From Pseudogymnoascus verrucosus (taxonomy: Eukaryota), in the NCBI GenBank assembly GCA_001662655.1, contig KV460210.1: DNA of 64,000 nt. One strand, 5' to 3'. The position numbers and the translations under genes were made by a program. Within the stretch, counting starts at the first letter, position 1. Every line of letters begins with the position of its first letter. The notes under the pieces are model-generated. The model was not told the DNA's origin. It did not search any database and saw only the letters and a list, made by a program, of their open reading frames with translations. Positions 1 to 64,000 of the stretch are shown here, piece after piece.

Positions 1-1385
1 TCGTACTGATCGACGTGCCCACCCAGGCAAGCTCCAAGTGGAAGTTCTTGCCCCTCCTGAGAATAAGGAAGATATGGATTATATGTGGAAAAACGCACTA
101 CGCCGCAAAAGAGACTACCAAGAGACAGTCAAGAAGCAAAAGCGCGAGTTCGAACAAGAAATTGAAGAAGTCACCGGAAAGCGCAAGCGTGATGACGATG
201 ATGAGCCCGTGAAGATGAACGGAAAGCTTCGGCGGAAGGAGAAGAGAAAGGCAATGCAAGAAAAACTTCAACATAAGTCTAAGATTGAGGCTGGCCAAGG
301 AAAGCCCATCGCCGACACACCTGCAGAGGATAAAGCCGCATTGAATACTGCCGGTATGTTGTTAAGGGCGGATAAAATCGATTTTGCTGACTTTATAAGT
401 GAGATGCCACAAGCAGACATCACCGGCCATTCCTCTGGCGCTTATACTCAACAACCGTCGCCGTGTACCCGCTAGCACAGCCGGTGGGAATGAAACATAT
501 GCACCTTTTGTCAATGCCAACTATCGCGCCAACCTTCGCGTCACCGACTTCTTCCCTCACAAACTCGAAGATTTCTCAGTTGGTAGAAAGCCAAACGAAT
601 TCGACTGTCTCTCTGACTTCGACCCTACGTCGGATGAAGAGGATGATATTAATACTGTCGGTAAAGACATTAGTGACTTTGTACTCCGTGATAACGACCA
701 TCTACAGTGGAGTTGGCGATTCGCATTGCAAGTCGAAGATGCAAGTCCATCCGAAAGCCCAACAAAAGAGCGTGTTTGGGTTTTAATCGATAATGAGTCA
801 GGTCAGTTTCTATTGACTGAAAATGCTGCGAATCTCCGCACGACGCCCGATGTTCTTGCTGCTGTGCGCGAGAGGCTCTTTGTGCTATGGGGCGACCTAG
901 AGGAAAGGAAGGCCGCCTACCTGAACAGCGCCGAAGGAAAGATCCTTCTCCCGCGGTCACTGGAGTCATCCAGCTTGTCAAGAGATGTTTCGCCTCCTCC
1001 TAAGATCCCCCAAAAGCTTATATCTCGACCTGGAGAACAGCCACCAGATAGTGACGAAGAAATGCCTGATGACGAATCACCCCCCCAAAAAGCACCCGCC
1101 GAGCGAGATCCAAACTCATTGGAAAGTATTAGAAAGGCTACCCCTAAACAAGCAGCTACACGTCTTGCTGCGAAGCTGAGGGAAATTGGAGACCAGGCCC
1201 AAAATAAGCCATTTCCGGGATGCATTCGAGAGTATGGCATCAAAGTTAAGGTTGAAGAGCCGGCTTCGGATGAAGAAAATGAGGATGACGAAGATGACGA
1301 GGATCAAAGCCAGCGAACAGAAAAGCCTGTGGTAGCGACAAAGTGGGAAAGAAAGTTTGGGCTACATGGGACTATAATTGTATGA
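1..1385 (+). CDS. Protection-of-telomeres (POT1-like) ssDNA-binding protein, 3' part (5' end outside window)
   Basis: ORFs 38..475 and 399..1385 join through an intron 354-399 (GTATGT..ATAAG, giving NTA-V-RCHK). The C-terminal motifs PFVNANYRANLRVTDFFP, WSWRFALQVED, LFVLWGDLEERK, NKPF-CIREYG and WERKFGL resemble the Pezizomycotina POT1 C-terminus. Confidence 0.7.
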
Positions 1386-1913: not shown

Positions 1914-4900
1914 CTAACTCTCTTCCTGCATAAAATCCACGATCGCCTTAATCCCCGCAGGACCCAGCCCACGCCAAGGATAACACACATAAACCCTATC
2001 CAAACTAGCACCGAATTTCTCACGAAACTCAGTTTTATTCGTCAGTTTCAAACGCCCATTGATAATCTCATACGTCTTTTTCAGGAGCTTGAGCTTGCCC
2101 TTCCCCATGTTGCGGCCGCCGACAACAGTATCTGTCGCACCAGTGCCATACGTAATGCTGTGCACATCCGGCTCCTGGGCCACGATGGCCGCCATGGCAA
2201 ACACGCTCAGGGATTCGATGGTACCAGAGGGTGCGCCTGGGAACTCGAGCATGAATTTCACCTGGTAGCCGTTCTCTGGAGCAAGCTGATGCAGAACAAG
2301 TATCGCGTGGACACGGCCATCTCGGGAGCCGTCGGTGGCGTAGAAGTAGCGGCGGTGCTCTTCGTCAATCCAGGGCCTGATCTCTGTGAGATGGACCTGA
2401 GCGCCGGCTTTGCGCCTTGCCTTCCATTCGCCGATGCGCTCGTTAACTCGTGCTTTAAGCTCTACTGGGACAGGCTTGGTTTTGGGCCATTCGAAGTTCT
2501 TCACCCTTTGGTGCTCGGCATGGCGTATCTTTCTGGCGATATCATGGTCTTTAGACGCGATATTGTTGTGTGGATCAACTCTGTTCTCTGCGACTGGGCT
2601 CAGGGTGCGCCAATTGCATTTATCACCGAGGAACTCCTCTATCGCTGGGCCCGCCATAAGCCATAAAGGCTTGAGATCTCGTCGCTCTGTCTTAATATAG
2701 TTGAGGTATCCAGAAACAACCTGAGGGTATTGTGATTTAGCGCATAGAGGCTCTCCAACGGTGATTGCAAACCCATGATACGGGACAAAACCTTGAACCG
2801 CGCCTGTGGAAGGATGTCGCCAGATCTCGTAGCGTTCATCCAGCCAGGACGTATTGGCCGCATCGCCATAGTTTGCAATGAGCTTCTCGAGAGGTTGGTA
2901 GTCTTTGGGGACGATTTCTTGGTTCCGGTTTGTCTTGTCGGCCCATGGCGGATTGGTAGTACTTGCCTCTGGGTGCCGTAGGATGGGCCCTCCTAGATGT
3001 CTAGGAAGGGATTTTGGATCCCTCGGAAAGAGTGATGCTAGCCGGATATTGCCAAGGTCAAGGAAGAGGAATGTGAGTCTCTCGAGGCCAATACCGGCTC
3101 CAGCATGTGGGGGTGCAGCCCATCGGAAGCCCTCTATATAGTCGTTCATTACCTCAGGCTCTACCCCAAGCCTCCTCATGCGCTTTTCTAGGCAGCTAGC
3201 ATCGTGAATGCGTTGGCCACCGCTAAGTATTTCCTGGCCTCGAATAAAAATATCGAAGGAATTGGTGAAGTTTTCATTGCTAGGATCTGGCATTGTGTAA
3301 AATGGCCGCGCAGAGGCGGGGAATTTATCCAGAATATAGTAGTCTGACTGATATTTTTCTCTCACGAGCTGCCCAAGCCTTATTTCGGCTCTTGTGGACA
3401 AATCTTCGGTGTCAGATGGCGGGTTTCCCAATTCATCCGTCCATCCATCGGACAGCAATAGCTTGATACCCTCAGAAAATGATAATCGAGGTGTTTCATC
3501 GCGCCACAATAGGCTTTCATGAGGATAAAACTGAGATATTATCTCAATTTCTCTGCTATATCTTTCATATAAGCCCTTCCACATACTCTTTAACATTTCA
3601 TCAATCAAATCCAAGGTTTCGTGGTAGTGCTCCTCAAAGGCCATTTCTACCCGCTGGTCAGCTCGTGCATGGTTGGAGTTTGAAAGTAACTAACCAAGAT
3701 CTAGCCCAGTATATTCCGTGAGGTGCCGAGGTGTATTGCTGTTTTCGGCTCGGAATACCGCTCCAATTTCATATACTCTCTCAAAATCTGCAGCGATACA
3801 CATCTGCTTCGCTAGCTGGGGTGACTAATTTTCACATTATTAGAATCAGCCATGATTTTTGAGTATAATTAAATAACATACCTGGGCCAAATATACTGGC
3901 CTGCCAAAATAGTTGACTTCGAAGACAGACGCCCCTGACTCGGTTGCGCTACCTTGCAGCTTTGGTGTGTGGATTTCAATAAACCCTTGGGAATCTAAAT
4001 AAGAACGGAACATATTGCTTATTCCCGATTGGATGCGAAAGATGCCTTGAGAACACGTCGTGCGGAGGTCAACGATCCTATTATTTAGACGGTAAGTCTG
4101 AGGCAACGCTTTGCTATGCCTACCACCTTCGGTGCTTCCTGGAAAGGCATAAGCAGATGAGAGTCATTGAACATGGAGGAACTTACCTCGCGAGCCCCTC
4201 TCAACGCTAGTTTCACTGCTGTGACCGTCGCCAGCAGTGGTTTGGCTGCCCTGACCATTGGATTCTCCGGATATTTCCTCGTCGGATTCGCCCGAGGCCT
4301 CCTCACTTTCTCTCAGACTGAATCTCCCAATATTCTCAGCCTCGTACACAGAAAAAGGCACATGTTCGGATAATTGTGAGATCAGATGTATTTCTTGAAC
4401 CTCAATCTCTGCATCGTGTATCGTTGCTGTATGGACGGTATCGGGAGGGCTGCGGACCTTCCCTTTAACAAGTACAATACTTTCTAGGGGATAGTGTAGA
4501 ACGGCCCGCACCATTTGCTCTGATACAATTCCACCTAATTCATTGCCCACGCCATTGGGACGCATATTTTGATGGCTATATCTCCCTCCATCTCCATCTC
4601 CATCGTCCGGGTGGCTGGCCTCGAGCACGCCCTGAATTGTGAATGTTTGCTGACGGAAGACGAGGAATATCAATTTAGCGCTCAATCGTCGTATGGTATG
4701 TATTCGAGCCCTGAATGTAATAATATGGCCAATTTCGTCTATTCATTATAAGCTAGATTCAATGACCGTTGGACTAAGACCAGTAAAGAATAACGTACCA
4801 GAAAAGTCCAGCTCCTCGAACTGATACCTTCCATAATATTCCATCTCTTCGTCGCTTCTCTTCCTAGTCTTGCTCATATTTATGCTCAGGGGCTTATAGA

Positions 4901-5270
4901 GCTTGGTGAGTTCAGGCGGACCATGATTTAAAAATTTGGCATCTTTCTCGCGGGCGGAGATCCCATATTGCTGCTCCTTGTGTCTTCTTGTTTCCCTCCT
5001 TTCGTGCTTTGCTCTTTTGGGCCTTGCTCGCTGGTGCCGGGTCGAATCCTCGCCGGTGACTGCCACACCTTCCGGTACATTTCGGGCAGCAAATACCGGC
5101 CTGTGTGCAATTCGTGATGGTTCATTTTCCTCGGGTTTGCCTCCAGTCTTGAGTCGCCTGAGTGGAGCCTTTAACTTCTGCGCGAGCTTGCTTTTAATCC
5201 CATTTGGTTTGCGATCCTCGCCATTGGAAGCACCTGGCTCTTTCTTCAGTGCTTTCAACATCTGGGCCAT
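1914..5270 (-). CDS. erdS: Ergosteryl-3beta-O-aspartate synthase (aspartyl-tRNA synthetase fused to DUF2156/aminoacyl-tRNA transferase domain), multi-exon
   Basis: Spliced from ORFs 4746..5306, 4164..4685, 3846..4106 and 1914..3644. It has a eukaryotic AspRS core: OB-fold, [75 protein letters not shown]. About 360 extra residues follow ([23 protein letters not shown]...F..AP.GTIE....F..KFG). Probable ATG at 5270. Confidence 0.88.
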
Positions 5271-5827
5271 AGCAAGGGTCTCCCAAAATTTACCACCAAT
5301 GGTCAATCATATGGTTTTGAGGGTCCTGAAGGCAGGTAGCCTGATATCTCACTTTGGATTGTGAACAAAACCACATGCGCAACATGGGCAAACCATCAGA
5401 AAGAATACCAGTCAATGGAGTCAAACAATGAAACCCTTAAAAATAATATCAACGGTATAATATGATTTTTAATTGAAGGGTACGATTTGAAATATTGCTA
5501 AATAGGCAAATATATGGTACCAAGGGACCTTGTTGGACTGTGACATCATCTTCCATACCTTATTAATCTCGACCCATAACATCGTCAACCATAATTCTTA
5601 CAACTCGAGCCGAGCAAACTCATACTTGTGCTTAAGCCACATACGACAATGAAAATAACTATTCAACAATAGGGCCGCTGTTATTGAATTGTTTAATGTC
5701 GTATTTGTTTCTCAAGGCATCGGCCCCTAACTGGGATTCCCCCATAATAATTTTAACCTTAAAACGATATTCTCAACACTTGCGTTTTGCTAAGAAATAC
5801 CTCGCTCACTAATATTGCTTTACCGAT

Positions 5828-7098
5828 ATGGACTCCAATACTGGGTATCGGTGGCTCCTGTAAGTCGTATTATTTCCTTTTTTACTCGGGTTTTTTTCTG
5901 ATATGTTAATCATAGACACCTGAAGGCTATAATTTGGAGATATCTAATGTGGATTGGAATGCTCATCCACCATCGCGCCCAGCCTGCCTCCAGGCCCCCT
6001 TCCTTCATTGTCAAAGCTCCATCGAGATTATCGGTGCAAAGAGGAGATATTTGCCTTGTCTTCTACGTCCCAGAGAAATACCACACCTCTTCGGATGAGC
6101 ATCGTTTTCCAGTCATCATTAATTTCCATGGCGGTGGATTTACCTTGGGCACGGGAACTGATGATGCCCGATGGGCGCGCTATGTTGTGGAGAAGACCGA
6201 AGCTGTTTTTGTGAGCGTAGAGTATCGACTAGCACCAAAGTACCCCTTCAGCGTCGCTGGTGATGATGGAACTGACGCCTTGATATACCTGGCTGCACAT
6301 TCCGAGGAGTTACGTCTTGATCCCCAAACGATCATCCTTGGCGGTTTCTCCGCCGGGGGAAATCTCGCCTTAACAATTCCTTTCATCTTCTACGAGTTAA
6401 AAAACGGCAGCGAAAAGCGCTTCTTACGGCCCAATGACTCAGATGGAGCCGACCAGAACGATTTGAGCCAGATGAACTCGCCTCCTACTGTCCCGCAAGC
6501 CTGCCAAGCTAGTTCACAAAGCACTCCTTTAATTGAATGCCGGGCGACAGCTTTAGAGACAGTGCAAGAAATTCCTCCACTTACGATATGTGCTATTGTC
6601 TCATTTTATCCTCCAACAGACTTTCGAATACCCCGCGCAACCAAACGCACGACAAACTCTCGGCCTGAACTCAACTTATCGGCAGCACTCACCAATCTCT
6701 TTGACGACTCGTATCTCTCATCGGAATACGCTGAAACATCATTGCATCTAGGAGACCCCTATCTCTCACCTGCTGCGGCCAGCGATGATCTATTGAGAGC
6801 TGCTTATCCTCAGTTGATCATACTCTATACCTGCGAGCACGACATGCTCAATGCCGAAGGAGTTACATTCGGGGAGAGGCTGAAGAGTCCAAACATCGGT
6901 AAGACCGTGAAAGGTGGGATTATTGAGAATGTTCCACATGCATTTGACAAGATGCCGAATCCAATGAAATACCGAGAGGCTGCCGAAAGAGTATATGGTG
7001 AGGCATGCGCGGAGCTAATTGCAGCTGGATTGGGGAGTGGTGCACACCAAACAGAACGGGCACAGCCCAAGCACAGTAAGACGGTAGACAGGTTTTAA
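5828..7098 (+). CDS. erdH: Alpha/beta hydrolase (HSL-like lipase/esterase), probable ergosteryl-aspartate hydrolase
   Basis: ATG 5828 and an intron of about 5860-5915 give MDSNTGYRWLLHLKAIIWRYLMWIG. HGGGF oxyanion motif, GFSAGG nucleophile, EHDML and VPHAFD (Asp/His). Head-to-head with the erdS-like gene. Confidence 0.75.
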
Positions 7099-7541: not shown

Positions 7542-9383
7542 ATGTCAGACTCAAACGCGTCGCCGGCGGAAGTCCGTGTTTCTGTCATCGCTCTGGTCGT
7601 TTCATTGGTTGCACTTGTTGCTACCACCGGGCAATTGCTACAACAGTATTTTGCAACAGCAGATGGCTACCGTCGTTGCCAATCGTCCGTCATGGGCGCT
7701 TGGGGTAAGAAGACAAGACTGCGGTGGAGATGGCGTCAGTTTCGATTTGAGACGCTGTATTCGACGCCTGAAATATTCATGACGGATATGTTTTATCCGA
7801 TCTGTTCGGCCGAATACCTGCTAGGGCTGAATGACATGGAACTCAATAAGCTGTGGAGTGCCCCTGGCCCCAACAACTATGGCAGACTTGCTGGCGAGAG
7901 CAGGTCTAATGGAGACCTTGTTGGCTGGCTTGAGTTGCTATCTCAGATGCACCGCTCAACTCATAAGTCATTGTCACCAGCTAAGACTAAAGATGATGTT
8001 AACCGTGAAATTAAACTCGTCAACGCACATCAACAATTTCACTCGGATTACCGCCGAATACCGGCAATAGAAGTTGTGGAAAGGTCATGGGACTTTCAGC
8101 CACCAGATGTGTCGCGGCCTTTGGCGAAAACTACGCTCAGTACTTTGGCGGTAATGGCTCGGAGGATGGGCATGCGATGGAAGGTCTTCCGCCCTGAAGA
8201 TGGGATCATGCACGCCGAAGGCGGCGGCCATGTCCTTACATCGACGGTTGTGAGAACGCTTGGTCTTGTTGTTCAATACAATTACCACGGCCAGACCGGC
8301 TCTTACTTCCTGAACAATTCATATTCTAAAAAAGCGGGCCTTGGGACAGCACGTAAGAATGAAGAAATATACATCCCCACTCGCGAAGCAGACAGTCTCG
8401 GCGCAGGTGTTGTTCGCGGGGATGAAAGACTTGGCCTCTCGGATTTTGTCCTCACAACCCAGGACGATATAGTCGATGCCCTGAACAGCCTAGTATCTAG
8501 GAACGGCATGGGTGATTTGCTGAAGGAAATATTGCGATTCGACGCTGGCTTTATGTTCCCCGTGGGAGATTTAATTGCCTTTTCCATGATACCGATGTGC
8601 ATTCCAAATCAAGGAGAATATATGTCACTGGTCCAGATACCTGCACCGAGCGATAATACAGGTGGAGTTACCGCGTCCAGAGCCGGCCGCCTCTCTTTCC
8701 GTGGGAGTCTTCGTGACCATCTTGGAGATGTATACTTACACAATGCCTTGGAAACACAATCCTTTGCCGACGTCTTAGAAACGGAATTATCCGCCGGTAT
8801 TTCAGAAACAGCCTCCTCTACCGACCCTGCAAGGTTTACAGCATCTTGGGCATTGACAAAGATCGAGCAACTGATAATCGAGGCCGATGACGACGACAAT
8901 CTCAAGAAGAACCCTCCTAAGAATGCGGAGGATGAAGGGTGGATCGTCCGCCGCAAGACTAGTGTCGTTACGCTGGCGCTCGACATACTTGCACAGTGCA
9001 GTGACTACTTCTCAAGCCTAAGTTCTGAGATCCCTCAATTCACATACCCGGCATTCCTAGATTCCCACATCCGTTGCTGCGATTTCGGATTTGAGCTCAA
9101 GGATAACTGGGACAACGGGCGAGAGCCAGGAAGCATAGAGCGAAGGATGATGCAGAACTTTACGAGATCTGAATATGATCAAGTCAGGCAGTATTTCGAT
9201 AGGCTGCCACTTTTAATGGACCATTGGAAAATGTGGGGATGGACAGATAAAGGGCAGATTCTCGATGTGTGGACGGTGATGATGCTGAGGGCGTTTTGCT
9301 GGGGAATCTGCCACTTTTTTGTTCCGGGCGAGAGGGTACCTATCAGGTATTATGGGAGCCAGCTGCCGGTCTGGCTGTCTTGA
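7542..9383 (+). CDS. Modin-like protein (similar to the Podospora mod-A family), N-terminal TM helix
   Basis: Intronless 613 aa ORF. N-terminus VIALVVSLVALVATTGQLLQQYFATADGYRRC..SVMG.W...RWRQFRFET and SWDFQPPDVSRPLA.TT are typical of fungal modin-like proteins. Confidence 0.65.
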   Translation: MSDSNASPAEVRVSVIALVVSLVALVATTGQLLQQYFATADGYRRCQSSVMGAWGKKTRLRWRWRQFRFETLYSTPEIFMTDMFYPICSAEYLLGLNDMELNKLWSAPGPNNYGRLAGESRSNGDLVGWLELLSQMHRSTHKSLSPAKTKDDVNREIKLVNAHQQFHSDYRRIPAIEVVERSWDFQPPDVSRPLAKTTLSTLAVMARRMGMRWKVFRPEDGIMHAEGGGHVLTSTVVRTLGLVVQYNYHGQTGSYFLNNSYSKKAGLGTARKNEEIYIPTREADSLGAGVVRGDERLGLSDFVLTTQDDIVDALNSLVSRNGMGDLLKEILRFDAGFMFPVGDLIAFSMIPMCIPNQGEYMSLVQIPAPSDNTGGVTASRAGRLSFRGSLRDHLGDVYLHNALETQSFADVLETELSAGISETASSTDPARFTASWALTKIEQLIIEADDDDNLKKNPPKNAEDEGWIVRRKTSVVTLALDILAQCSDYFSSLSSEIPQFTYPAFLDSHIRCCDFGFELKDNWDNGREPGSIERRMMQNFTRSEYDQVRQYFDRLPLLMDHWKMWGWTDKGQILDVWTVMMLRAFCWGICHFFVPGERVPIRYYGSQLPVWLS

Positions 9384-9663: not shown

Positions 9664-10749
9664 TCATATCGCACCAGCTGGCAATATCTTCTTCTCTAGT
9701 TTCATCATCCACTTATTCGTCTGCTCGGCGAAAGATAAAGTCAAGATTGTATGTGGGAGAATCCGCGCCAAGTGCGGCAGGTAACCCTTATAGATGGCAA
9801 GGAGACCCTCCGTGCGCACAGTCTTCGAGAGACAGTCGTAGACACCCTTGTAGAGGTTTCCGTTCTGGTTGTACATTCGGGACATGATAGTATCTGCGTG
9901 TGTCAGTAAGAGTCATTTCACAGGATGGGTTTCTCATCCATAACATACCTGGTGGATGCATTACACAGCATACGACGAACCCACTCGCTGTGCTACTCGC
10001 GAGATGCAGAGCGGGTCCCTCTTCCATGCCAAAATGTTTCACTAACCTCCGCTTCGCGAAGAAGTATGTCGGCAGCTGCACGGAGCTGCCAAAGCCCGTC
10101 CTCACCATCGCGGCGCCTACACCGCGGTATAAGCCCTTCAACCCTTCGGTGCCATAGATGCTCCTGAACCCATCAAGCGCATTCTTATATTTATGCTGCG
10201 TTCCGACAGGTCGCATTGGCGAGAAGCTCTGCAATCTCGTCTTGATAAGGAAAAACGGGCTTCCCGCGGCGGCGCCAAGGATGCCGGAGGATGCGCCAGA
10301 GAAGACATTGACCCCGAGGGACTGCACCGTAGAGTCGCCGTAGACAACTTTCGTCGCCGTAGCACGGAGGGGCTCATAAAAACCGAGACGGCAGCCGTTA
10401 AGTAGGACTTGGTATATGTAGGCAGCCCCGATACCGCGGTAGATTCCTCTGAGACCCTCATTTCGAACGATGACGGTGACGCCGTGGATCGGACCCTTAT
10501 ATAGTTTAGGTTGTTGCGACTTGCCTTGCAGCTCGCCCTGCAATTGCATGCTTGGAAGAGTCAGCGCGGTGAAAAGGCCAGCGGAGGGGTGTGAACAAAC
10601 CGGATCTTGACTGTCTCGAAGGGATGGGTTGCTGTCACTGCGCCGCAGGCTGCAACGCCGCCAGCGATGAATGCGCTGGGGGAATTGTTAGCATTCTGCG
10701 GTTTAGTCGTTCACCCGGGTGCTCCGGCTCACCCTAACGTGGTCGACAT
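9664..10749 (-). CDS. OAC1: Mitochondrial oxaloacetate/sulfate carrier
   Basis: Spliced gene beginning MSTTLG. Carrier repeats THPFETVKIR, SPFFLIKTR, HPPD; YQVLLNGCRLGFYEP and HLARILPHTILTL. Confidence 0.85.
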
Positions 10750-11388: not shown

Positions 11389-12648
11389 ATGAGCTCCACA
11401 CTCATGGACGTGGACTCCCCGAGGCCGGCGCCCAATGCAAATGGAGGCATTGGCCTCTCCAGGTCAGGCATCAATGTGCCGGCTATTGCGAAAGTCAGCG
11501 ATATAATATCAAACTTTCGGCCAACAAGGGTAAGCCTGTTGCGAATTCACTCACTTGCCCACTCATAGCTAATACTGCCCCATTCAAGCTCTTCAAGCGC
11601 GACTATCATAACGAGCCCACGACGGTGCTCTCACTGGACTTTGATGACAAAGGCGAGCTCCTGATGACCTCCGAGACGGATGAGTCCATCCAGCTATATA
11701 ATGTCCTCGATGGCACGTTCAACAAGTCGCTGTTCAGCAAAAAATACGGTGTCAAGCACGCCAAATTCACACACAAGTCCACGAGCATCATCTACGCCAG
11801 TACAAAAGAGAACAGTATGCCTTGCGCTCTCTCTGCTATGGATGACTCGAGATTCTAATTCATATTCTGCAGATGATATCCGCTACCTCGCGACCCACGA
11901 CAACTCCTTCCTACGCTACTTCAAAGGTCACACTGGGTCGGTAACCTGCCTCACAATGAACCCCGGCAGCGACACATTCGTCTCCTCCTCCCTCGACAAC
12001 ACCGTCCGCATCTGGGACCTCAACAGCGTAAACCCAATCGGAATGCTCAACATCAACTCCCCCCACCTCACAGCCTTCGATCCCTCCGCCTGCGTCCTCG
12101 CTATCGCCTCTCCTGCCGCACAAACTATCCTCCTCTACGACATCCGCAAATTCGATGAAGAGCCCTTCGCCTCCTTCGACCTCTACCCCTACGCCAAACA
12201 CGACCCAACCGCGCGCGCCTGGCGCTCCCTCGACTTCTCCAACGACGGGAAATCTCTCCTCATCGGTACAGCGGGTAATACGCACTTCGTTCTCGACGCC
12301 TTCGATGGCAAGCTCAAGCACGGCCTCATCCGCAAATCTGGCGGCGCGCGCCGTCTCCCCTTGAGCAAAGAGGGACCTGATGGGGAGGATGACATGGAGG
12401 CGCTTCACCACACCAGCGGTGACGTGTGTTTCTCGCCCGATGGGCGGTACGTGCTGAGCGGACAGCAGCGTAGTAACGTGCTCGTGTATGATATCACAGG
12501 CGCGACACAGGCTGGAGGGAACACACCGATGGTCGAGCTCGAAAGTAAGAGCGAGGTGGCGGCGATACGGTATAATCCGCGCTTCAATATGTTTGCGACG
12601 GCGGACAGGGAGCTGAATTTCTGGGTGCCGGATCGGGACTCGGTTTAA
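11389..12648 (+). CDS. SWD2: WD40 protein, COMPASS/CPF subunit Swd2 (WDR82)
   Basis: Three exons. SKKYGVKHAKFTH, IRYLATHDNSFLRYFKGH, FSNDGKSLLIGT, FSPDGRYVLSG, YNPRFNMFATAD..L.FW. Confidence 0.9.
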
Positions 12649-13156: not shown

Positions 13157-14071
13157 TTACGCGCCATACCTCGTCTCCGCCACTGGCTGGCCCCTCCTCG
13201 ACTCACCCCTTCTCGACCCATGCCTCCTGGACTCATGCCTCCTCCCACCCACAAACTTGCCCACCAACCCCCCAGTCAACGGCATCTCCATATAATCCCC
13301 CACCTTCCCCCTATCTTCCTTTGGAATAGCCTTCAGCGTGATACCCACGCCCTCAAAGATGATAACCACCGCCAACTCCATAAGCACCACCATAACCAGG
13401 AAAATCGCATCACTCCCCGTCACAGCATTGAACTTCGCATCGTTCCCGAACGCTCCCACGCCTGCATAGACGACACGTATAAGCAGAAATGGCAGCGCAG
13501 CCGCAAGCGCGGGAATGAGACGTCGCTCCCCTGCCTCGGCCGACGAGATGGAAAAGAGCACTCGCACGGTCGCGAGACACAGGATGACGTAGCCAGCGAT
13601 AAAGAGTCCAACGGCTGCCTGGACGAGTGTTCGCGCATCGTGGACATCGCCGTCAGTTTTGGCATCAGTGAGGTTGATGGAACCGACGATGGCGAGGATG
13701 AGAGCAATCATGATGAGGAGCTGGATCAGGCGGATCAGGCGCGGCGTGATAGTCACTGAGTGGGCGCGGCGCTCGATGGATTCGATAGCGCGGTTGAGGA
13801 GGCCGAGGGAGGCAAGGAGGAGGGGGGAGAGACCGACGGAGTTGGTTATGAGGTAGGCCGTGTGGAGGGAGGTGGAGGTGGGGGAGTTGATTATGGCGAG
13901 GTTTAGGGCGCCGGAGAGGATGCGAAGGGTGCAGAAGATGACGAGAAAGATCCAGCCTGAGGAACGGCCGAAGCCATGGCGTTTGGAGAGGAAGGCGCCG
14001 AGGAGGAGGAGGGGGGCGTAGAGGACGAGGAGGGCGATGGAGATGCCGTTGCGGAAGGTTAGGGGAGTCAT
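13157..14071 (-). CDS. Fungal 7-TM integral membrane protein of unknown function
   Basis: Likely start MTPLTF at 14071. About 7 hydrophobic helices; RHGFGRSSGWIFL, GLSPLLLA and LPFLLIRVVY motifs. Confidence 0.75.
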   Translation of the reverse strand: MTPLTFRNGISIALLVLYAPLLLLGAFLSKRHGFGRSSGWIFLVIFCTLRILSGALNLAIINSPTSTSLHTAYLITNSVGLSPLLLASLGLLNRAIESIERRAHSVTITPRLIRLIQLLIMIALILAIVGSINLTDAKTDGDVHDARTLVQAAVGLFIAGYVILCLATVRVLFSISSAEAGERRLIPALAAALPFLLIRVVYAGVGAFGNDAKFNAVTGSDAIFLVMVVLMELAVVIIFEGVGITLKAIPKEDRGKVGDYMEMPLTGGLVGKFVGGRRHESRRHGSRRGESRRGQPVAETRYGA

Positions 14072-15821
14072 TGTTGAGAGTAGAGGGTGTGATGGATGAG
14101 GGGCGAGATGCTGTCCACGGGCGTGGGATGGAAGAGCGGTTTTGCAATGGAGCTTGAAGTGTATGACAACGGAGTGAAGTGAATGATGAAGTGATAAGGT
14201 TACCAAGACGGGGAATAGAAAAGCTTATATGCTCACCTTCAACGCGCTGGACATCCCGATGTGGCCAACGGCCGCGCCGGGCACTCATCTCATCTCCACT
14301 CTCATCCCACCTCAAGCCTCGTATGAGCCATCTCAGCCTCGATAGCAACGTTTGTGTTGGATCATCGAAAAGATGGGATTGAGTGGTGTGGGCCGTGCGT
14401 TGGCGGAGCACCCTTGTGGTTGGGGTTCCAGGGGAGTTGTCTGGGCAGGGGTATTGCGGCCGTAGGGGATGACAAGTACAGTGGGCCCCGTCTTAAAATA
14501 CCTGTGTTTGCGGGTACAGAAGATCCTTCATATAGAGTCCTCGAGTTCTTGTGAAGCCATACTATAGTCAGTACCACTCTTATCGAATTCCTCGACTCTA
14601 ATTTACCCTATAAACCTCTTTCTGTACTTACAAAAAGCAGTAATCCAGCTCAAATCACCAAATCGTGATCCCTCCAAAGTCCCAGGTCCCCTAAAAAAAC
14701 GCTACAAAAGCTTAACCCACCCGGCCAAGATAACCCTAACGCTGACACGCGTCCGTCCAATAGCGCCATCTCGCCCCCATCAAGCGCACTTACCGCATCA
14801 GGCTCTTTCCTTCGTTGAGTACAGAGTACAGCCATACAGCCATGATGACTCCGCCACGCCCCATCATCATCCTACAGTAGTGCTGATGGCAACAACCGTA
14901 GGGGCGGCGCTTAGGGTGTCAGAACGACGTGGTGACCCGATTAGGGATCGCGTTTCGAGACTGTATACAGTCGTAATATCAGCCTTGAAATTTGCATCAT
15001 TTTTTGCTTTGCAGTCGTGTCTTCGGACAGATAGGTGGACATATTTTGTGGAACCGTACTCCGTAGGTAAAGGATGAAGGATTGCTACCCCTAGGCAGGA
15101 CGAGATGAGATTGACAGGATGCTCACTTAGAGGGCTGTCAAACCTGTCATCGGGGAGTACATCCAGCGATTTTTTATTCCACGCCCTATGGTACCATCGA
15201 CGGCATGTCCTACGCAGTTTGTGAGCTACACTGGTAGCTGTTGCGCCAGCCTTATCGATGCCCCTGTTAAAGGATTTAAAGGCGTGTGTTGAAGGTATGG
15301 AACGGGAAACGGATTGGAGTTATGATACAGCGTGTATCGTGATGGCTATTGGGCATGTGCAAGGGGCTACTCTGTGCGATAGCGATAGATAGGGGTCTTC
15401 TAAGGGCGAGATTCTTATTTAGATAGGGAGATGAGTAGGACGAGGGTGGTATGATACCAGAGATAGGATACCAGAGGCAGTGAGCGAAAGCGGATGCAAA
15501 TATATACCAATGAAAGACACAACATTGTGCACTATAGAGCTCTCCAGGACCGTGCGCTTTTCTATTTTTACATACAGTTATGTGAATATAAACTCTGGGA
15601 ATATCTTCAATCGGGTCATACGAAAGTCGGCCACGTGATGTGGCTTGCTTCATTACGCCATGCCAACCCCAAGACGTCGCGTGGTCTTGTCCCAACCGAA
15701 GGATTCAAGTACATAACACAGTTCAAACCCATCGTTACGATCTCGTCCCTACAAATCCGTCACTGAATAGTTAACTCTTAGAAGTAGCTCTTTGACACAA
15801 GGCAGATATACAGAGGAACAA

Positions 15822-25673: not shown

Positions 25674-26798
25674 TTAAAAGTTGGCTTTCAGCACGGGTGA
25701 GGCCTTTGGAAACCTGCCCGGCTCCTTCCCTTGTAATAGCGGCCCTCCTATCTTTCCTGCGAACACCCCATTCATCCACGCGGTCGTATACGCCACCAAT
25801 ATCTGCCTCATCTCATCCGGTGCAATCGTACCTAGCACATCCGCCAATGCTGTCGGGTCCTGCCCAGCCGCCTGGAGCAGCGTCGGAACATCCGAGAAGG
25901 TCTGGTGCGTCGTGTTCGCGATGTCGACCCACAGCTTCGGCCCCTTCAGCAGCGGCCATGTCGCCGGCCAGCTTTCATCGGCCATCCCGTGGGACATGAG
26001 CAGCACTGGCTGAGACACTCCTGACGAGGGCGATTCGAGGAAGGTGCCATCCATATTGATCGCGCCACGAATGCGGGTGTCCTGGCTAGCGGCGATGACG
26101 GCAGCAACGCCGCCTAGAGAGTGCCCCAGCATGGCGACGCGGTCGGTTGGGAATGGTCGGGCCCCGCGCTGGGGGAGAAGTTTGGCTATGGCGGTCGCAT
26201 TGCTCAGCTGGTCGATAACAAAGGATGCGTCGGTGGAGCGAATGGGCAGGTGCTCCAGCATGGCCGATAAATCCTGTGTAGTGTCGTTGTTATAAACTGC
26301 GTGGCCATCAGGATAGGTAATGATGTCAGCGTCCCCGGGGTGGTCGATAGTGATGACTATGAAGCCCTCGCTGGCGATGGCAGAGGCAAGGACGTTATAA
26401 TAAAGGCGAGGGATGCTGTAACCAGGAGAGAAGAGCAGAACGGGGACATCATCTAGTGGTGAGCAGCCGGAAGGATAGTCCGAACACACTGGCAGGCGAG
26501 CCTCCAAGAAGAGGGGCGTGAGGTTTGTTGGTATATTGAAGATCTCTTGGAGAAAAGGCCCCTGATAATCGGCGGTTTTGTCAGGCATGTAGTGGACAGG
26601 CACAGTGGATGCACACGTTGCAGGTTGAAATACCGACAGCATCAATGCCCGAGGCGTTGGTTTTTCGGCGTAAGGATCATTGCGGCCGTAGTCGATGAGG
26701 GTCCCAGTCGTCAATGTGACATTGTGCTTACCAGGCGGGTTTGGGACCAGGTACCCAGAAGTCGTGTTGGCGAGCAAAAAGAGAAGAATCTTAAACAT
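25674..26798 (-). CDS. Secreted PAF-acetylhydrolase-like alpha/beta hydrolase
   Basis: Signal-like MFKILLFLLANTTSG; FSPGY, TIDHPGDA, GHSLGG nucleophile, INMDG, HQTFSD. Confidence 0.8.
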   Translation of the reverse strand: MFKILLFLLANTTSGYLVPNPPGKHNVTLTTGTLIDYGRNDPYAEKPTPRALMLSVFQPATCASTVPVHYMPDKTADYQGPFLQEIFNIPTNLTPLFLEARLPVCSDYPSGCSPLDDVPVLLFSPGYSIPRLYYNVLASAIASEGFIVITIDHPGDADIITYPDGHAVYNNDTTQDLSAMLEHLPIRSTDASFVIDQLSNATAIAKLLPQRGARPFPTDRVAMLGHSLGGVAAVIAASQDTRIRGAINMDGTFLESPSSGVSQPVLLMSHGMADESWPATWPLLKGPKLWVDIANTTHQTFSDVPTLLQAAGQDPTALADVLGTIAPDEMRQILVAYTTAWMNGVFAGKIGGPLLQGKEPGRFPKASPVLKANF

Positions 26799-28095
26799 AG
26801 ACTGCATATCTGCGAGTGTCGAGAAGACTGGGGCGTGTGAGGTAGGGGACGACTGGAGAAGGGGGTCCAAACAACTGACGAGCGTTGTTTCGAATTCAGG
26901 CAGAGAGAAGACGATGGCTATCAGGTGGTAAAAGGGGCAGTTATATACTGTGCAACCTTATTCTCTAAGGACTCAGTATATCCCAGGTGTTGGCCGTGAC
27001 GTGTAAAGTACGCCATCGCCGTGGAAACGCTAGGCATGGCTGTTGAGACCATCTCGGCCTTGGATGGTTTGGCAATGTCTGGCTCATCCGCATGCTGTAT
27101 TGAAAATAAAGTTCTACATGCTTGCTTACACTTTCTCTATACTCAAATGTTTCATGATTATAGCTTCCGCTGCTGCGCCCTATATCCGCGTAGGCAATTT
27201 CAAGGGATTCGAGGGGCGGGTTGGGTCACCGAGGCATCTTCATGCCGACTGACCGACATGAGAAACCTAGTCGAACGGCCTTAGTATCAATGCCGGGGAC
27301 CATCAGTACGTAGAGGGAATCAAATGGTCGGATATAAGGCCCGGCCAAGCAGAAAAGGGGACGCTCTTGACATCGAGAAACCAGTTGTATCTATCCATAG
27401 CGTCGTGCAGCCCGGCCAGTGCGGTTCGAGTAAGCGGTGTATCGTTTGACGCGCACTTTGCCGCGTAAGGGAACTCGGCCAGACTTACACTTCATAGGTT
27501 AGCAACTCGACTGCCGTGTATGACAGATAGTTGGGCTTGTCTAGAGAAGGTGTGTTCTATGTACGCGTCTCTCTCCTCCCCTGTAGCCAAGCCACCTTAC
27601 ACAGCCACTCGCTTGAGTCGCTCTCTCTCCAGCAACGACATACGGTAATTAATATTTATTCCGTGACTGGCAGGGTCTCTCTCTAAAAGACTGACTTGAT
27701 CACTCCCAATGCCGCCGAGGACCACATACCACCTCGTTCTTACGGCGACAATCTATGGCGAGATCCACAACGAAAACGGCGGCTTGAATACTAATGCCCG
27801 TGTCGCCAATGACGGCCGCGGATGTTGAACAATCGCCGTTTGTCCTAGATCTTTACTCGTGCTTTATGTGAACACATCCAGAGTATCCAAGATGGTTGCC
27901 CGCCTTCTCTCCCATATGTCCTCTCTTCCTTGGAAGGCGAGGAGAGAGTTCCCCAAAATGACTATTTGCTGACGCCTTTCCAAAGGCTGAAGTCTTTGTT
28001 GGTATACCTTACATAAAGGTTTCATTCATTCACTCAACTGCAGGCGCTGTGGCTTATCTCTGAATTTCATCTTGCAAATATCTATCTAAGACATC

Positions 28096-30814: not shown

Positions 30815-32343
30815 ATGGCAGGTCTAGAAGACTATGCGTTCGCATATAATGCTACATTAAACACTTCTCCAATGAACCTTTCCACATATGATGAATACTC
30901 GAACGACCCCAGGTTCATAGAGTCACAGAGACAGTTTCGAGCACTATTATTCGATACTGCTCATTCTACGGGCCCTACGAGAGTCGGCAGCCCAGTACCA
31001 GGAGATGGCAAAGATTCAGATTATCTTCACCCTTCGGACTCCAATGCGTCAACGACGGAATGTGGTTCATACATTGGGACGGTTGTGTCGACAGTTGAAC
31101 GCGTAATGTGGCTGAAGAATTACATCAACGAGGTAGCTCCGTGGCTCGACATGTTCGATGCACAGCAGGCCTTCGGGAGGAAAGTTCCTATGCTTGCAAA
31201 GACATCTGCTCCCTTAACGTACGCAATACTCGCCATCTCGGCACGTCAGATGGAACGGCAAAAAAAGCTACGGGGCGATCATAACAGCCTACAGCTTTAC
31301 CAAGAAGCAATCAGATCATTAACGCCACAGCTTCAAGCACGAGACCCAAACATTTTGGCTGCATGCGTGATACTCTGCTGTTTAGAGATGATGTCTGCTG
31401 CTCCAAAGAATTGGAGGAGGCATTTAGATGGATGTGCGGCTCTGTTTAAATCATATGGAATCCATGGATTTAGTACTGGAATCCCTCAGGCCGTGTTTTG
31501 GTGCTATGCAAGGATGGGTACGTTTTATAGAGACCTTTACAAGATAGCTTATTGAGCTGCACCCGTGTAGTCATGTGTCTGTAATTTAGATAGTTGATGT
31601 TTCTTTTTGGCTAACGCGATACACTAGATCTTTGTGCAGCCATCATTTCGGAAGGGGATCAGGGTTCAGTGCTAGATCTCCAGAATTGGCTCCCTGAAAA
31701 TGTTACGGCCTCCCAAGCAGGCGCCCTCTTTCGCTCTTCGGGAATCCCAGACATGTACGCAAACTATGCCGTATGGCTGTGCGCCCGAGCATGTCACTTG
31801 TCCTGGACTCGAACAAGAGCACATGAACCCAAAAATAGCGGGGTCAACACGGAGCCTTTCATTCACTCGTGGCACAATCTTTGGGTTGAAGTGCAGGGCT
31901 GGGCGCAAAAGAGACCGGCCGAAATGCGAGAGTTGGACTTCGCAGGTGGTGGCAGTCAATCTCAAAGCGGACCTTTTCCCTTCATTCTCTTTGCTGCTCC
32001 ATGTGCTATCTCTTCAAACCAACTATATCACACTTCATGTTTACTACTACTCGGTATGAAGCCATTGTCCGTCAACACGCGCGAGATGGGTCATGTTGGC
32101 TCGGCCTTGTGGCATGCCTATAGAATATGTGGTATCTCGATAACAAACTCTCATCACGGCTGCTTGAACAATGCAATCCAGCCTCTTTGGCTGGCGAGCA
32201 AGCTACTTAGCCATCCTGCCGAGCATAGATTGATTGTAGATCTCATCAAAAAGATTGAAACAGTAACTGGGTGGAGCGGAACCTGGAGGATCCGAGACCT
32301 GAGGGAGCTCTGGGGATATGACAAAGACGACCCATCATTTTAA
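30815..32343 (+). CDS. Fungal-specific transcription-factor-domain protein (Fungal_trans_2-like); no Zn2Cys6 motif found
   Basis: YINEVAPWLDMFD..FG..VP.LA, AILAISARQ, WRRHLDG, FWCYARM|DL, NQLYHT, HAYRICGIS, NAIQPLW; intron about 31518-31627. Confidence 0.8.
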
Positions 32344-32378: not shown

Positions 32379-34727
32379 TTAAAGCTCTATAAATTCGCTC
32401 TTGAGAGCCCGTTGTTGTTCAATAGCGTCTAGATGCGCCAAAATCTTACACGATATAACCTTACCGTCGAATCCGAAATATTTATAGGCGTCTTTTCCGG
32501 GTAAACTTTTCCCAAACGACTTCATCGAGATACTCGCGTCGGCATAACGCTCCCATCCGTTCGCAGCATACGCCTCAACAACCACGACTAGCGTTTCCAC
32601 CCGGCGCAACACGCTTCTTCTGTACTCGCGACTCTGCTCTTCGAATAACCTTTGGCATGGGAAGCTGATGATGCGGGCTTTAACACCATTTCTCTCCAGA
32701 TCCTCAGCAGCTTCGACAGCAAAGCACATTTCGGAGCCGACGCCGATGAGTGTTACTGCTGCATCTTCCTTCTCACGGAATACATAAGCACCATATCTGA
32801 CGGAATATCGATTGCTCTCCACATGCTGCGGTAGATTCTGTCTTGACGTAGAGATAATTGTCGATCTATGCTTAGACTTCAACGCCACAGTCATCGCGCC
32901 AGCAACCTCTTCTGAATCACATGGTCGAATGTATAGGAGATTAGGCATAGCACGGTACAAGGCTGCCAACTCAATGGGCTGGTGAGTAGGTCCGTCTTCT
33001 CCTGTGCCGATGCTGTCGTGGGTTGCTATATGGATGACCTGGAGCTCCTGGAGAGCCCCCATGCGGACTCCAGGCGCGGCGTACTGGAACCACAGTTAAC
33101 TTCGGGAAGCGTCATGAAGTTAATGATAACGTACCAAATAGAACATGAAGAAGCTGGATGTGACGGGTATGATAGTCCCACGGTTGAAGGCAGCAAGTCC
33201 ATTTGCTATAGAAGCCATAGCATGCTCTCTGATACCATAATGTATATAGCGCCCACTGTAGTTGCCATTAATACCACATACGGTTTTAAGGGTGGGCTGC
33301 AGCATAATTAGTCCTCTAGCCCTAGATATATAAGCTGTTGGTGGCACTTACACTTTGAAAGTCCACCTTTCCAGGCCAACTCATATGGACACTTGGTGAT
33401 AGATCTGCAGTGCCTACCATAAAATTCGGAATTGTTTTTGCCAGCGGATTGCAAACAAGGCCTGCAGATTTGCGGCTTGCTGTTGGTGATGTGGGGAACG
33501 ACTTTGGAATAACATTCTCCCAGTTGCTCGGCAGCTCCCCTTTAATTCTTTGCCGCAACTCATCGCCCAACTCTGAGTGGGCTTTGCAGTATGAATCCAG
33601 CAAAACCTCCCATTGGTCCACTGAATCAGCCCGGGAACGGAGGTCCTTTCTAAAGAAGTCATACACTTTGTCCGGAACGTTAAACCGCTCCTCTGGGTCG
33701 AAGCCGAATTTCTGATGAATATTCTTCACGTCTTCTTCACCAAACGCAGCACCATGAGCCTTGGCGTCTCCTGCAACCGCACTTCCAATACCAATCACAG
33801 TGTGGCAGTTGATGAAAGTCGGTTTCTCGCTGCTGTCTCGTGCGGCGGCTAAAGCGTTCGTGATACTTTGCACATCGTTCGACCCGTCTAGAACCTCAAT
33901 AACATTCCACCCGCTCGCCGCCATCTTCGCATTGATATCTTCTGTATTTGCAACATCTGCACTTCCATCACAAGTGACGTTGTTATTGTCAAATATTAAA
34001 ACAAGGTTGTTCAGTTTCCAGTGTCCGGCTAGAGAAATGGCTTCTAGCCCAACACCCTCTTGGAGGCATGCGTCGCCAGTCATACACCAGGTTGTATTGT
34101 TAATAATGTCGAAGCCAGGTCTGTTGTAAGTTGCTGCCAAGTGCTTCGTCGCCATGGCCATTCCAACCGCATTGGCAATTCCTTGGCCAAGAGGACCGGT
34201 CGTGACTTCTATCCCAGTATGCTCTCTCTCCGGATGCCCTGGACAAAATGAGTCTGGGGACGGGGAGTGGTAGGTTTTAAGTTGATCCAAGGTCATATGC
34301 TTGTACCCTAATAAATGAAGAAATGAATATTGAAACAAACACGTATGCCCTTTTAAATTGTTAGATACATTATGATGTTATGCTTGGGGGGGGTCGGGAT
34401 CACTCAACCATTTGATAAGATGAATCTATCGCGATTAAACCACTCCGGGTGATCAGGAGAATATTTCATAGTGTACCGCCAAAGGGCGACACCAATTGCT
34501 GCCATGCCCATCGCACCTCTAATCCTGTTAATAATTGAAAACATCTCAAAAACCTTGTAAGTTGAGGCATACCCTGGATGACCGCCATTGAAATGCTGCA
34601 CGAGGTCTGCTATTAGAACCCGAAACGTCCGCAACACCAAATCATGATCTTCGTGGTCGACAAGACTTAGGTTATGAGACTTTGACTTCACGGTGTCAAA
34701 GTCAACCAGTGTTACGGATGGCGCCAT
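32379..34727 (-). CDS. Transketolase, dihydroxyacetone-synthase-like type, multi-exon
   Basis: GGHPG, NRDRFILSNGH, PGHPE, TTGPLGQG, ThDP motif GDACLQEG..DNN, YGIREHAM, HDSIGTGEDGPTHQP, SRQNL. Confidence 0.92.
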
Positions 34728-38464: not shown

Positions 38465-39970
38465 TTAAACCTCTGCGACTTCCCAGTCAACCTGTAATTT
38501 CTCTGAACCAGATGAATCATCTGCTACTTCAACCAATACCCTCCTATAGGCCCTCATTGGAAACTTGGCATTATCAATGACTTCCAAGATTAAATGGTAG
38601 GTTTTTGGTCCCCATTTCATTACTTTTTCCGGATCTAACGGGAAAATCATCCCTTCGTCCTTTCCGGGGATCTCCACCGAGACCTTTTCGAATTTTCTCT
38701 TCCCGTCAGACTCATCTTTGAAGGTCAGCTCCGGTACCTCGAATTTGACTGTCCACTGCGTAGCAGAGGGCTCTCTATAGTGTAACCACCGAAATTGCAG
38801 GCTGTCAGCGGAGTCTGGATCCCAGCTCTGGGAGGCGTCAAGGTGTACTGTTGTTCCAAACCCTGTCTTGATGCGCAAAGCGCCCAACTCTGAATCGCCG
38901 TTAACTACTAGTATAGGTGAGTGGTTGACGTTATTGAAGTCGTTGCTCAGCGTCCACTGCATACGTGCGGCGAAATCCCCCTGGTATGCGTCTCTCCAAC
39001 GCCAGATTGTGGCTTGGCTTCCAACATGCATATTGCCGTCTTTTCCACGAACGTAGTCCGCAGCATCGCTATAGTGTCTGCTACCGTCTTTACCAGTAAG
39101 ATCCGTAAGGTTATAACGTCCTCCCCACCCACCCCATCCAGGGTGGCAAGGATCCGTGAGTCCATTCTGAATGAGGCTGAGAAACGTTGGCGTATCGCCT
39201 TCTGGAATGAATACTGGATCCGGATAGGCTGCTTTGCCATATGGCCCGATTTGGATATATTTCTTGAGCCATTCGTTGGTCACAAGACTGGAGTCAGGGC
39301 CGCCCTGGTTGAAATGGTAATATGACTCTCCCGATATCCCCGTCCAAGCAGCAAGTCCGTATGCATTCCAGCCGTGAATAGAGGCAATATAGAAGATTTT
39401 GGGAAAATTCAGTCTTATCCAAGTCCCAGAGTCGTCTTGATCTGATATGGCATACACTCGAAGCTTAGCAGCAAATGTGGCTACTTCAGTTTCAGACCGA
39501 GACTTCTGCACTTGGAGGAGAGCTTGCGCAAGTACATTGGCGCCGCCCCAGATCAAAACCCATATGTGACCGTCAGAGGCAATTGCGTCCACGGCTGCAA
39601 TAAGTAGCTCGGAGCCTTCATTCAATGGGCCCCGTGCCCCTGTCATCCCGTACTCAGCGATGCCATCGCGGACGACCTGACGTAGAACCTCTGCCGTTGG
39701 ATATTGACGGCTCGGAGGAACATGCGCGTTCAAATTCGCCTGGACCTCGGCATATGCATCGAGGATTTGGTGGATCTGCTGCTTGTGCGTTGACGTCTGC
39801 TGCCAGAAGGAAGTTGTTGCAACCAACCCGTCGATTTGGAACTCATTTGCATATAGTAGAAAGCGAGTGAGCGACTCCGCATCATCGGGTTCGTTGCAGA
39901 TGTCTGTGAGAACGACAATGTGCGGCTTTGTTTTAAAATTCGGAAGGCTCTCGAAAGTATGAAGAGCCAT
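38465..39970 (-). CDS. DUF1593 (Sde182-like) protein with nucleoside-hydrolase-like domain; cytosolic
   Basis: Intronless 501 aa, no signal peptide. LTDICNEPDDAES..R.LLYAN, WGGANVLAQAL, YAISDQDD, EGDTPTFL, WGGWGGRY, WRWR..YQ.DFAARMQW, LDASQSWDPD. Confidence 0.85.
   Translation of the reverse strand: MALHTFESLPNFKTKPHIVVLTDICNEPDDAESLTRFLLYANEFQIDGLVATTSFWQQTSTHKQQIHQILDAYAEVQANLNAHVPPSRQYPTAEVLRQVVRDGIAEYGMTGARGPLNEGSELLIAAVDAIASDGHIWVLIWGGANVLAQALLQVQKSRSETEVATFAAKLRVYAISDQDDSGTWIRLNFPKIFYIASIHGWNAYGLAAWTGISGESYYHFNQGGPDSSLVTNEWLKKYIQIGPYGKAAYPDPVFIPEGDTPTFLSLIQNGLTDPCHPGWGGWGGRYNLTDLTGKDGSRHYSDAADYVRGKDGNMHVGSQATIWRWRDAYQGDFAARMQWTLSNDFNNVNHSPILVVNGDSELGALRIKTGFGTTVHLDASQSWDPDSADSLQFRWLHYREPSATQWTVKFEVPELTFKDESDGKRKFEKVSVEIPGKDEGMIFPLDPEKVMKWGPKTYHLILEVIDNAKFPMRAYRRVLVEVADDSSGSEKLQVDWEVAEV

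Positions 39971-62905: not shown

Positions 62906-64000
<1,095 letters not shown>

Follow-up and report, generated by a model that had tools for sequence, protein, structure and literature searches.

A divergent gene pair at positions 1914..7098

The subject of this report is the locus at positions 1914..7098 of a 64-kb stretch of Pseudogymnoascus verrucosus DNA (hereafter the window, to whose coordinates all position numbers refer). It is very probably an erdS/erdH pair whose host is a Leotiomycete near Pseudogymnoascus, and not an Aspergillus. The tRNA-dependent ergosteryl-aspartate chemistry of such pairs has been demonstrated with enzymes from A. fumigatus, A. oryzae and N. crassa (PMC7334510, PMC13219428). 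As the initial annotation of this DNA had recognised, the system is an already described one, the pathway having been reported in 2020 (PMC7334510). The same annotation called its function poorly understood, which is an overstatement given that structure, mechanism and phenotypes were supplied in 2026 (PMC13219428). The present analysis establishes the gene structures, the domain content, the fold, the residue conservation and the conserved divergent synteny of the pair.

The DNA is eukaryotic (fungal) and its introns are short and of the GT-AG type; both gene models were built from the window sequence and homolog alignment. The erdS gene runs on the minus strand (5270..1914) in five exons and encodes 1047 residues, while erdH lies on the plus strand (5828..7098) in two exons and encodes 404 residues. 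All elements of both genes occupy the places assigned to them in the initial annotation, with stop codons at 1914-1916 and 7096-7098, respectively. The features of the pair, with their basis in brackets, are the following.

4799..5270, minus strand: erdS exon 1, start codon at 5270, N-terminal domain, residues 1-157 and the first base of codon 158 (gene model)
4739..4798, minus strand: erdS intron 1, 60 nucleotides, GT..AG (gene model and homolog alignment)
4187..4738, minus strand: erdS exon 2, OB-fold anticodon-binding domain (about 4335..4736), then an acidic Ser/Glu/Gly-rich hinge linker (PF01336)
4533..4619, minus strand: insert of about 26 residues in an OB-fold loop (gap between two aligned stretches)
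4139..4186, minus strand: erdS intron 2, 48 nucleotides, GT..AG (gene model and homolog alignment)
3882..4138, minus strand: erdS exon 3, last part of the hinge and beginning of the aspartyl-tRNA synthetase (AspRS) catalytic core, with the class II motif 1 region (PF00152)
3825..3881, minus strand: erdS intron 3, 57 nucleotides, GT..AG, interrupting the Q|SPQ signature (gene model and homolog alignment)
3695..3824, minus strand: erdS exon 4, SPQ..FRAE segment, class II motif 2 region (gene model and homolog alignment)
3647..3694, minus strand: erdS intron 4, 48 nucleotides, GT..AG (gene model and homolog alignment)
3015..3646, minus strand: erdS exon 5, first part, remaining AspRS core to LFPRDP (676-681), including motif 3 (PF00152, yeast AspRS)
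1914..3014, minus strand: erdS exon 5, second part, linker and DUF2156/double-GNAT aminoacyl-tRNA transferase domain (682-1047), with the stop codon (PF09924, 9w9e)
5271..5827, no strand: shared intergenic region, 557 bp between the two divergent start codons (G+C about 0.41-0.46)
5828..5859, plus strand: erdH exon 1, 32 nucleotides, start codon, residues 1-10 and two bases of codon 11 (N-terminal extension of homologs P0122/P0123/P0125/P0126)
5860..5915, plus strand: erdH intron, 56 nucleotides, GT..AG (gene model)
5916..7098, plus strand: erdH exon 2, alpha/beta-hydrolase fold-3 esterase and stop codon (PF07859)

The pieces of erdS are held by four minus-strand frames (4746..5306, 4164..4685, 3846..4106 and 1914..3644), and all the splice junctions that connect them fall in seamless alignment with nine full-length homologs. 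The start at 5270 is preceded by an in-frame stop codon, and the N-terminus that it defines, M-x-x-x-L-K-x-L-K-K, has the pattern M-x-x-x-(L/K)-K-x-L-x-K in common with the full-length homologs of the alignment. An acceptor at 4711 was considered for intron 1 and rejected in favour of 4739, since it breaks the frame. Three sequence runs mapped to the locus yielded only unspliced contigs, at least 95 % alike to the window and devoid of splice joints; these look like genomic DNA from near-identical strains.

For erdH, a start at 5947 (open reading frame 5947..7098, 383 residues) was also considered and discarded, because the annotated Pseudogymnoascus homologs possess a 21-residue N-terminal extension, which is encoded upstream. 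The initial annotation had described an HGGG/GxSxG hydrolase lying head to head with the synthetase gene at a distance of 557 bp. This is exact, the two ATGs being at 5270 and 5828 with 557 bases between them, and the spacing holds only with the spliced erdH model. The interval is presumed to be a bidirectional promoter.

The erdS product joins a class II AspRS to a DUF2156 domain

In the 1047-residue model, QSPQ is found at 427, FRAE at 451, GAGIGLER at 653 and LFPRDP at 676-681; the first three strings are AspRS signatures. PF00152 is matched both in exon 3 (E 1.5e-15, profile positions 3-77) and in the exon 5 piece (E 5.2e-33, 576-residue frame), and the yeast AspRS structures 1eov and 1asy match exon 5 by sequence (E 3.3e-65). 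Upstream of the core, the OB fold of exon 2 scores 27.7 bits against PF01336 (cut-off 27 bits) when the exact exon is used, compared with 17 bits for the raw open reading frame with its wrong ends. Its best PDB match is with solved ErdS chains (E 2.7e-17), in two stretches that correspond to residues 138-175 and 179-244 of 9w9f, and it also aligns with yeast AspRS 1asy.

According to the initial annotation, the AspRS core does not stop at LFPRDP but continues for some 360 residues, and 366 residues do indeed follow this motif. A profile search of the C-terminal 360 residues, the check that the same annotation had proposed, identified PF09924 (LPG_synthase_C/DUF2156) with 29.1 bits for a cut-off of 27.5 bits, over profile positions 14-298 of 298. 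An uninterrupted 576-residue frame (3644..1914, minus strand) spans the C-terminal half of the AspRS, including motif 3, and the whole second domain. The AspRS-DUF2156 fusion is therefore independent of the gene model, since motif 3 and the second domain are read in one frame from one exon.

Both halves of this exon were also recovered by a fold search with an AlphaFold2 model (mean predicted local distance difference test score, pLDDT, 83.3). The AspRS half retrieved yeast 1eov (E 6.3e-19, 52 % identity over 215 columns). The DUF2156 half retrieved the bacterial L-PGS 4v36 with a target template-modelling (TM) score of 0.78 (E 5e-14), together with A-PGS 4v34/4v35, MprF 7duw/9goe/6lv0 and the DUF2156 protein 5vrv. 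Three components of ErdS, namely a class II AspRS core, an OB fold and a C-terminal DUF2156 domain, are all found by Pfam and PDB alignment, and the core and the DUF2156 domain by fold search as well.

Conservation of the residues that matter in A. fumigatus ErdS

Residues 1-573 (of 576) of the last erdS exon align with residues 294-861 (of 862) of the 9w9e chain with an E value of 3.2e-198, and the same alignment is obtained with 9w9f and 9w9g, whose chains are 947 residues long. The depositors name these proteins aspartate--tRNA ligase. The three entries are, in my reading, the cryo-EM structures of A. fumigatus ErdS reported in PMC13219428: each of the 29 residues named in that paper agrees with the chain at index + 85. 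The fold search, whose library holds entries released up to 2026-04-08, did not return 9w9e-g, and the structural comparison with ErdS therefore rests on sequence alignment. Residues were mapped through the alignment of the last exon with 9w9e; A. fumigatus numbering and mutants are those of PMC13219428.

The nine residues of the CCA pocket and of catalysis (W785, R789, K790, G791, Q793, H795, F913, R914 and K916) are all identical in P. verrucosus, where they correspond to W878, R882, K883, G885, Q887, H889, F1011, R1012 and K1014. In the A. fumigatus enzyme, H795 is the proposed general base and R914 the oxyanion residue (PMC13219428). Of the alpha(+) helix residues, R749, K750 and R752 recur as R842, K843 and R845, and R753 is replaced by His846; histidine is near-invariant in this column of an alignment of 48 homologs, in which conservation at the key ErdS positions is complete or at least 90 %. 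The sterol pocket, at the GNAT I/II interface, retains 11 of the 16 residues listed in PMC13219428, among them every one of the five that lowered activity when mutated (S644, W645, D647, Q836 and K838).

The overall architecture is also that of A. fumigatus ErdS (AFUA_1g02570): an N-terminal extension, an OB fold, a class II AspRS core and a double-GNAT transferase with its alpha(+) helix follow each other in the same order, and the gene is divergent from erdH. The two proteins differ in length, the P. verrucosus one having 100 residues more (1047 as opposed to 947), of which about 22 lie before the OB fold, 26 in an OB-fold loop, about 45 in the acidic hinge and 7 in the C-terminal half. The proposal of the initial annotation that the locus is an ErdS/ErdH module is supported by the alignment of the last exon with solved ErdS, by retention of the tested transferase residues and by the divergently adjacent PF07859 hydrolase.

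The hydrolase encoded by erdH

The 404-residue product matches PF07859 with an E value of 1.7e-34 and displays the motifs HGGG (82-85) and GFSAG (154-158). The E values of the domain matches in both proteins lie far outside what chance would give. The putative catalytic triad, Ser156-Asp320-His352, and HGGG are invariant among 51 aligned sequences. An AlphaFold2 model (mean pLDDT 78.8, predicted TM score 0.83) retrieved HSL-type carboxylesterases in a fold search (target TM 0.63-0.77), and the best solved relative by sequence is 1jji (E 8.1e-20). A low-complexity insert separates the nucleophilic Ser from the acid of the triad, Asp; in the model, residues 165-191 of the open reading frame have a pLDDT below 50.

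Compared by published description (PMC7334510), the protein resembles A. fumigatus ErdH (AFUA_1g02580) and N. crassa ErdH in being a PF07859 esterase with a Ser-Asp-His triad encoded divergently from erdS. The triad of the A. fumigatus enzyme is S153, D277 and H307 (PMC7334510), so that the position of the Ser (156 versus 153) and the Asp-His spacing (32 versus 30) are close. By contrast, the P. verrucosus protein has about 40 more residues between Ser and Asp, which are of low complexity and predicted to be disordered.

Relatives, synteny and distribution

The closest named ErdH homologs among the 120 matches listed are four Pseudogymnoascus sp. proteins (83-87 % identity), followed by proteins from Helotiales (50-58 %). 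Among the 120 ErdS matches listed, the closest named homologs in the length range searched are from Leotiomycetes (61-64 %), with fragments reaching 92 %. Pseudogymnoascus is itself a Leotiomycete, of the order Thelebolales, according to a taxonomy look-up. The reported distribution of ErdS/ErdH covers higher fungi, Leotiomycetes included, and the pathway is conserved across Dikarya (PMC7334510, PMC13219428).

The names given to the listed homologs vary widely. The JGI names ergosteryl-3beta-O-L-aspartate synthase and hydrolase appear for 4 of the 120 ErdS and 8 of the 120 ErdH matches. Many of the ErdS homologs are called plain or nondiscriminating aspartyl-tRNA synthetase by their sources, and the ErdH homologs are mostly called 'acetyl esterase/lipase', hypothetical protein being used as well. 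Taken at face value, the former names, along with the lack of a second AspRS-like gene within the 64-kb window, would favour a housekeeping AspRS with a passenger C-terminal domain, or a fusion that is an artefact of the gene model. I regard this explanation as scarcely credible: motif 3 and the whole DUF2156 domain share a single exon, all 120 listed ErdS homologs carry both PF00152 and PF09924, and the fungi that contain ErdS are stated to possess, all of them, a canonical AspRS in addition (PMC7334510).

A hydrolase scan of metagenome contigs identified five loci, two of which (L004 and L005) end at the contig edge. The other three include upstream sequence, and in each of them this encodes an ErdS homolog on the opposite strand; since L002 and L003 are near-identical, these amount to two independent cases. 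Furthermore, 18 longest-contig sizes are common to the lists of 120 ErdS and 120 ErdH matches, four of them being 5.4-14.5 kb, which I take to mean that the ErdS and ErdH homologs concerned sit on one contig. The Chlorociboria homologs bear the consecutive locus tags g7854/g7855. Divergent erdS/erdH synteny is described as conserved in PMC7334510, in agreement with the window and the metagenome loci.

This arrangement bears on the assignment of the hydrolase, which could be a general HSL-type carboxylesterase that merely adjoins erdS and has no dedicated role in ergosteryl-aspartate turnover. Such a reading is favoured by the PDB matches, which by sequence and by fold are generic family members only, and by names, the ESM Atlas matches carrying only generic lipase/esterase names and the source names being mostly those of acetyl esterases. 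It is nevertheless highly improbable. Divergent adjacency is kept in all the testable related loci and in many contigs, the position of the Ser and the Asp-His spacing are near those of the characterised enzyme, and, according to PMC7334510, synteny is conserved and fungi without erdS are also without ErdH homologs.

Two side observations concern the wider family. First, one unbroken tblastn segment spans the positions of introns 3 and 4 in three of the metagenome loci (L001:2424-5638, L002:1978-4863 and L003:2028-4913), and in L001 the position of intron 2 as well. Introns 3 and 4 of the window (in L001, also intron 2) are therefore absent there, which implies intron gain or loss within the family. 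Second, AspRS-DUF2156 proteins of 941-963 residues, 53-57 % identical over 100 % coverage, exist in the lichen fungi Lasallia pustulata, Lecanora helva, Lepraria neglecta and Hypocenomyce scalaris. ErdS is stated to be absent from Lecanoromycetes in PMC7334510. This statement seems outdated by newer genomes, because Lasallia, which a taxonomy look-up places in the Lecanoromycetes, has a full-length AspRS-DUF2156 protein.

Departures from the Aspergillus enzyme

Several lines of evidence weigh against a straightforward equation of the P. verrucosus protein with characterised ErdS. On the 576-residue piece, as opposed to the C-terminal 360 residues, PF09924 scores 27.2 bits, just below its cut-off. 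The N-terminal exon has no PDB match at E<=10, the solved ErdS chain included, and no Pfam match at E<=1. In A. fumigatus, the N-terminal domain holds the elbow of the tRNA like a clamp and includes the motif xSKxxLKKxx (PMC13219428); the strongly basic stretch of the P. verrucosus protein that aligns with this motif region of Eurotiomycetes begins with S-T, not S-K. In the loop of the CCA pocket, an extra residue, Ala884, is inserted between the equivalents of K790 and G791 (K883 and G885), a feature found in the four closest relatives only. Five changes affect the sterol pocket, namely T641A, S642N, N677E, E712A and C728P. Finally, the 31 erdS coding differences from near-identical strains described below comprise 19 non-synonymous and 12 synonymous ones, which suggests that constraint on erdS is weaker than on a housekeeping synthetase.

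Some of these features extend beyond P. verrucosus. Basic residues abound in the N-terminal exon (19 K and 18 R among 157), the other Leotiomycete homologs of the alignment likewise lack the xSKxxLKKxx motif, and M. oryzae is another exception to it (PMC13219428). The acidic Ser/Glu/Gly-rich hinge is partly common to other Leotiomycetes. The OB-fold loop has 29 residues versus 3 in A. fumigatus ErdS, and none of the other aligned Leotiomycete homologs has so long an insert there.

The variation data come from contigs of the near-identical strain(s), for which 40 of 53 differences were listed; the sample is small and incomplete. These 40 comprise 31 differences in erdS coding sequence, 2 in erdH coding sequence, both non-synonymous, and 7 in non-coding sequence. 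The N-terminal exon (4799-5270) holds 16 of the 31 erdS differences, 9 of them non-synonymous, and an insertion of 3 bases that keeps the frame, located behind 4194 within the acidic hinge, is present in contigs of both near-identical strains. Within the limits of this sample, the pattern suggests that the catalytic body is conserved while the accessory parts around it evolve fast.

The N-terminal clamp without the SK motif, the OB-fold insert, the acidic hinge, the CCA-loop residue and the five pocket changes may alter the holding of tRNA-Asp or the sterol range. One explanation along these lines is that the protein is an ErdS-type enzyme functionally modified by lineage changes, with another sterol range, a looser hold on tRNA or less activity. 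An N-terminal domain that cannot be aligned with the solved one would fit this explanation, and so would the differences at 5 of 16 sterol-pocket residues. The inserted residue stands beside K790 and G791, whose mutation strongly lowered activity, and a natural K790E variant in M. oryzae has low activity (PMC13219428). However, every residue with a measured effect is identical in P. verrucosus, the changed pocket residues belong to those whose mutation had a slight or no significant effect according to PMC13219428, and ErdS is reported there to be promiscuous for 3-beta-OH sterols. Functional alteration of this kind is therefore unlikely. I attach an equally small chance to the related idea that ErdS has been remodelled in the Pseudogymnoascus lineage towards a different holding of tRNA-Asp or a different sterol range, perhaps in connection with an adaptation of the membranes of these fungi, which are cold-tolerant.

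Comparison with other known systems

Three other systems share parts of this design. Yeast cytosolic AspRS Dps1 (1asy/1eov) has the class IIb core, with 52 % identity over the 215 fold-aligned columns, and an OB fold that aligns, but unlike the P. verrucosus protein it has no C-terminal transferase domain and ends soon after an LFPRDP-type terminus. The bacterial MprF/aminoacyl-phosphatidylglycerol synthases (4v36, 4v34 and 7duw) have the double-GNAT DUF2156 fold (target TM 0.68-0.78) and also carry out aminoacyl-tRNA-dependent lipid aminoacylation. They differ in being only 11-16 % identical to the window domain and, according to PMC7334510, in having glycerolipid acceptors, in being fused to a flippase and not to a synthetase, and in having extracellular hydrolase partners. 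ErgS, the freestanding DUF2156 ergosteryl-glycine synthase, is a paralogous sterol-specific transferase with an essential alpha(+) helix; as described in PMC8913301, it has no fused synthetase and its Gly-tRNA is made in trans. The window domain, by contrast, is part of one polypeptide with an AspRS and aligns with ErdS.

The rest of the window

Directly downstream of erdH lies a 613-residue open reading frame (7542-9383, plus strand) without a Pfam match at E<=0.01. Beyond the erdS stop, the frames 399-1385 and 2-475 (both plus strand) encode acidic, Ser/Pro-rich stretches without a Pfam match at E<=1e-5, and are probably exons of one gene that runs past the start of the window. The remaining genes (9788-64000), which are ordinary ones for a fungus, were assigned by Pfam on raw open reading frames, as follows.

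9788-10549: mitochondrial carrier
11680-12648: WD40 protein
13157-14206: DUF7702
25674-26870: PAF-acetylhydrolase-like hydrolase
30815-31555 and 47440-48093: Zn2Cys6 factors
33322-34338: transketolase
38465-39970: Sde182-like nucleoside-hydrolase-like protein
52593-54344: FDF plus YjeF_N protein
59199-62373: EFL1-type GTPase
62987-64000: old-yellow-enzyme-type oxidoreductase

By this procedure, no further sterol or tRNA-related gene was found between 9788 and 64000. A tRNA scan of the 64-kb window returned no tRNA genes, hence no linked tRNA-Asp.

Proposed function and significance

By analogy with the A. fumigatus enzymes, the AspRS part of ErdS, with its OB-fold anticodon reader and its class II core, would activate aspartate with ATP and charge tRNA-Asp. 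The CCA end of Asp-tRNA would then enter the basic pocket beside the alpha(+) helix of the fused double-GNAT (DUF2156) domain, where aspartate would be transferred to the 3-beta-OH of ergosterol, with His889 (Aspergillus His795) as the general base and Arg1012 (Arg914) as the oxyanion stabiliser. The product would be ergosteryl-3-beta-O-L-aspartate, from which the ErdH hydrolase encoded by the same gene pair would remove the aspartate again. In P. verrucosus, expression of ErdS and ErdH and catalysis of these reactions are predicted from sequence, a reservation that the initial annotation had already placed on the activity and that holds.

ErdS/ErdH is an already known system, and an ortholog with its catalytic residues kept is not a new kind of thing. 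In the literature searched, no paper naming Pseudogymnoascus also names ergosteryl, ErdS or ErdH. The remodelling of the N-terminal domain, OB-fold loop, hinge and CCA-pocket loop in this lineage is the only, mildly novel angle, and the locus has little weight as a discovery. Its practical value lies in annotation: members of the family go under the names of plain AspRS or esterase, and the short first exon of erdH is easily missed.

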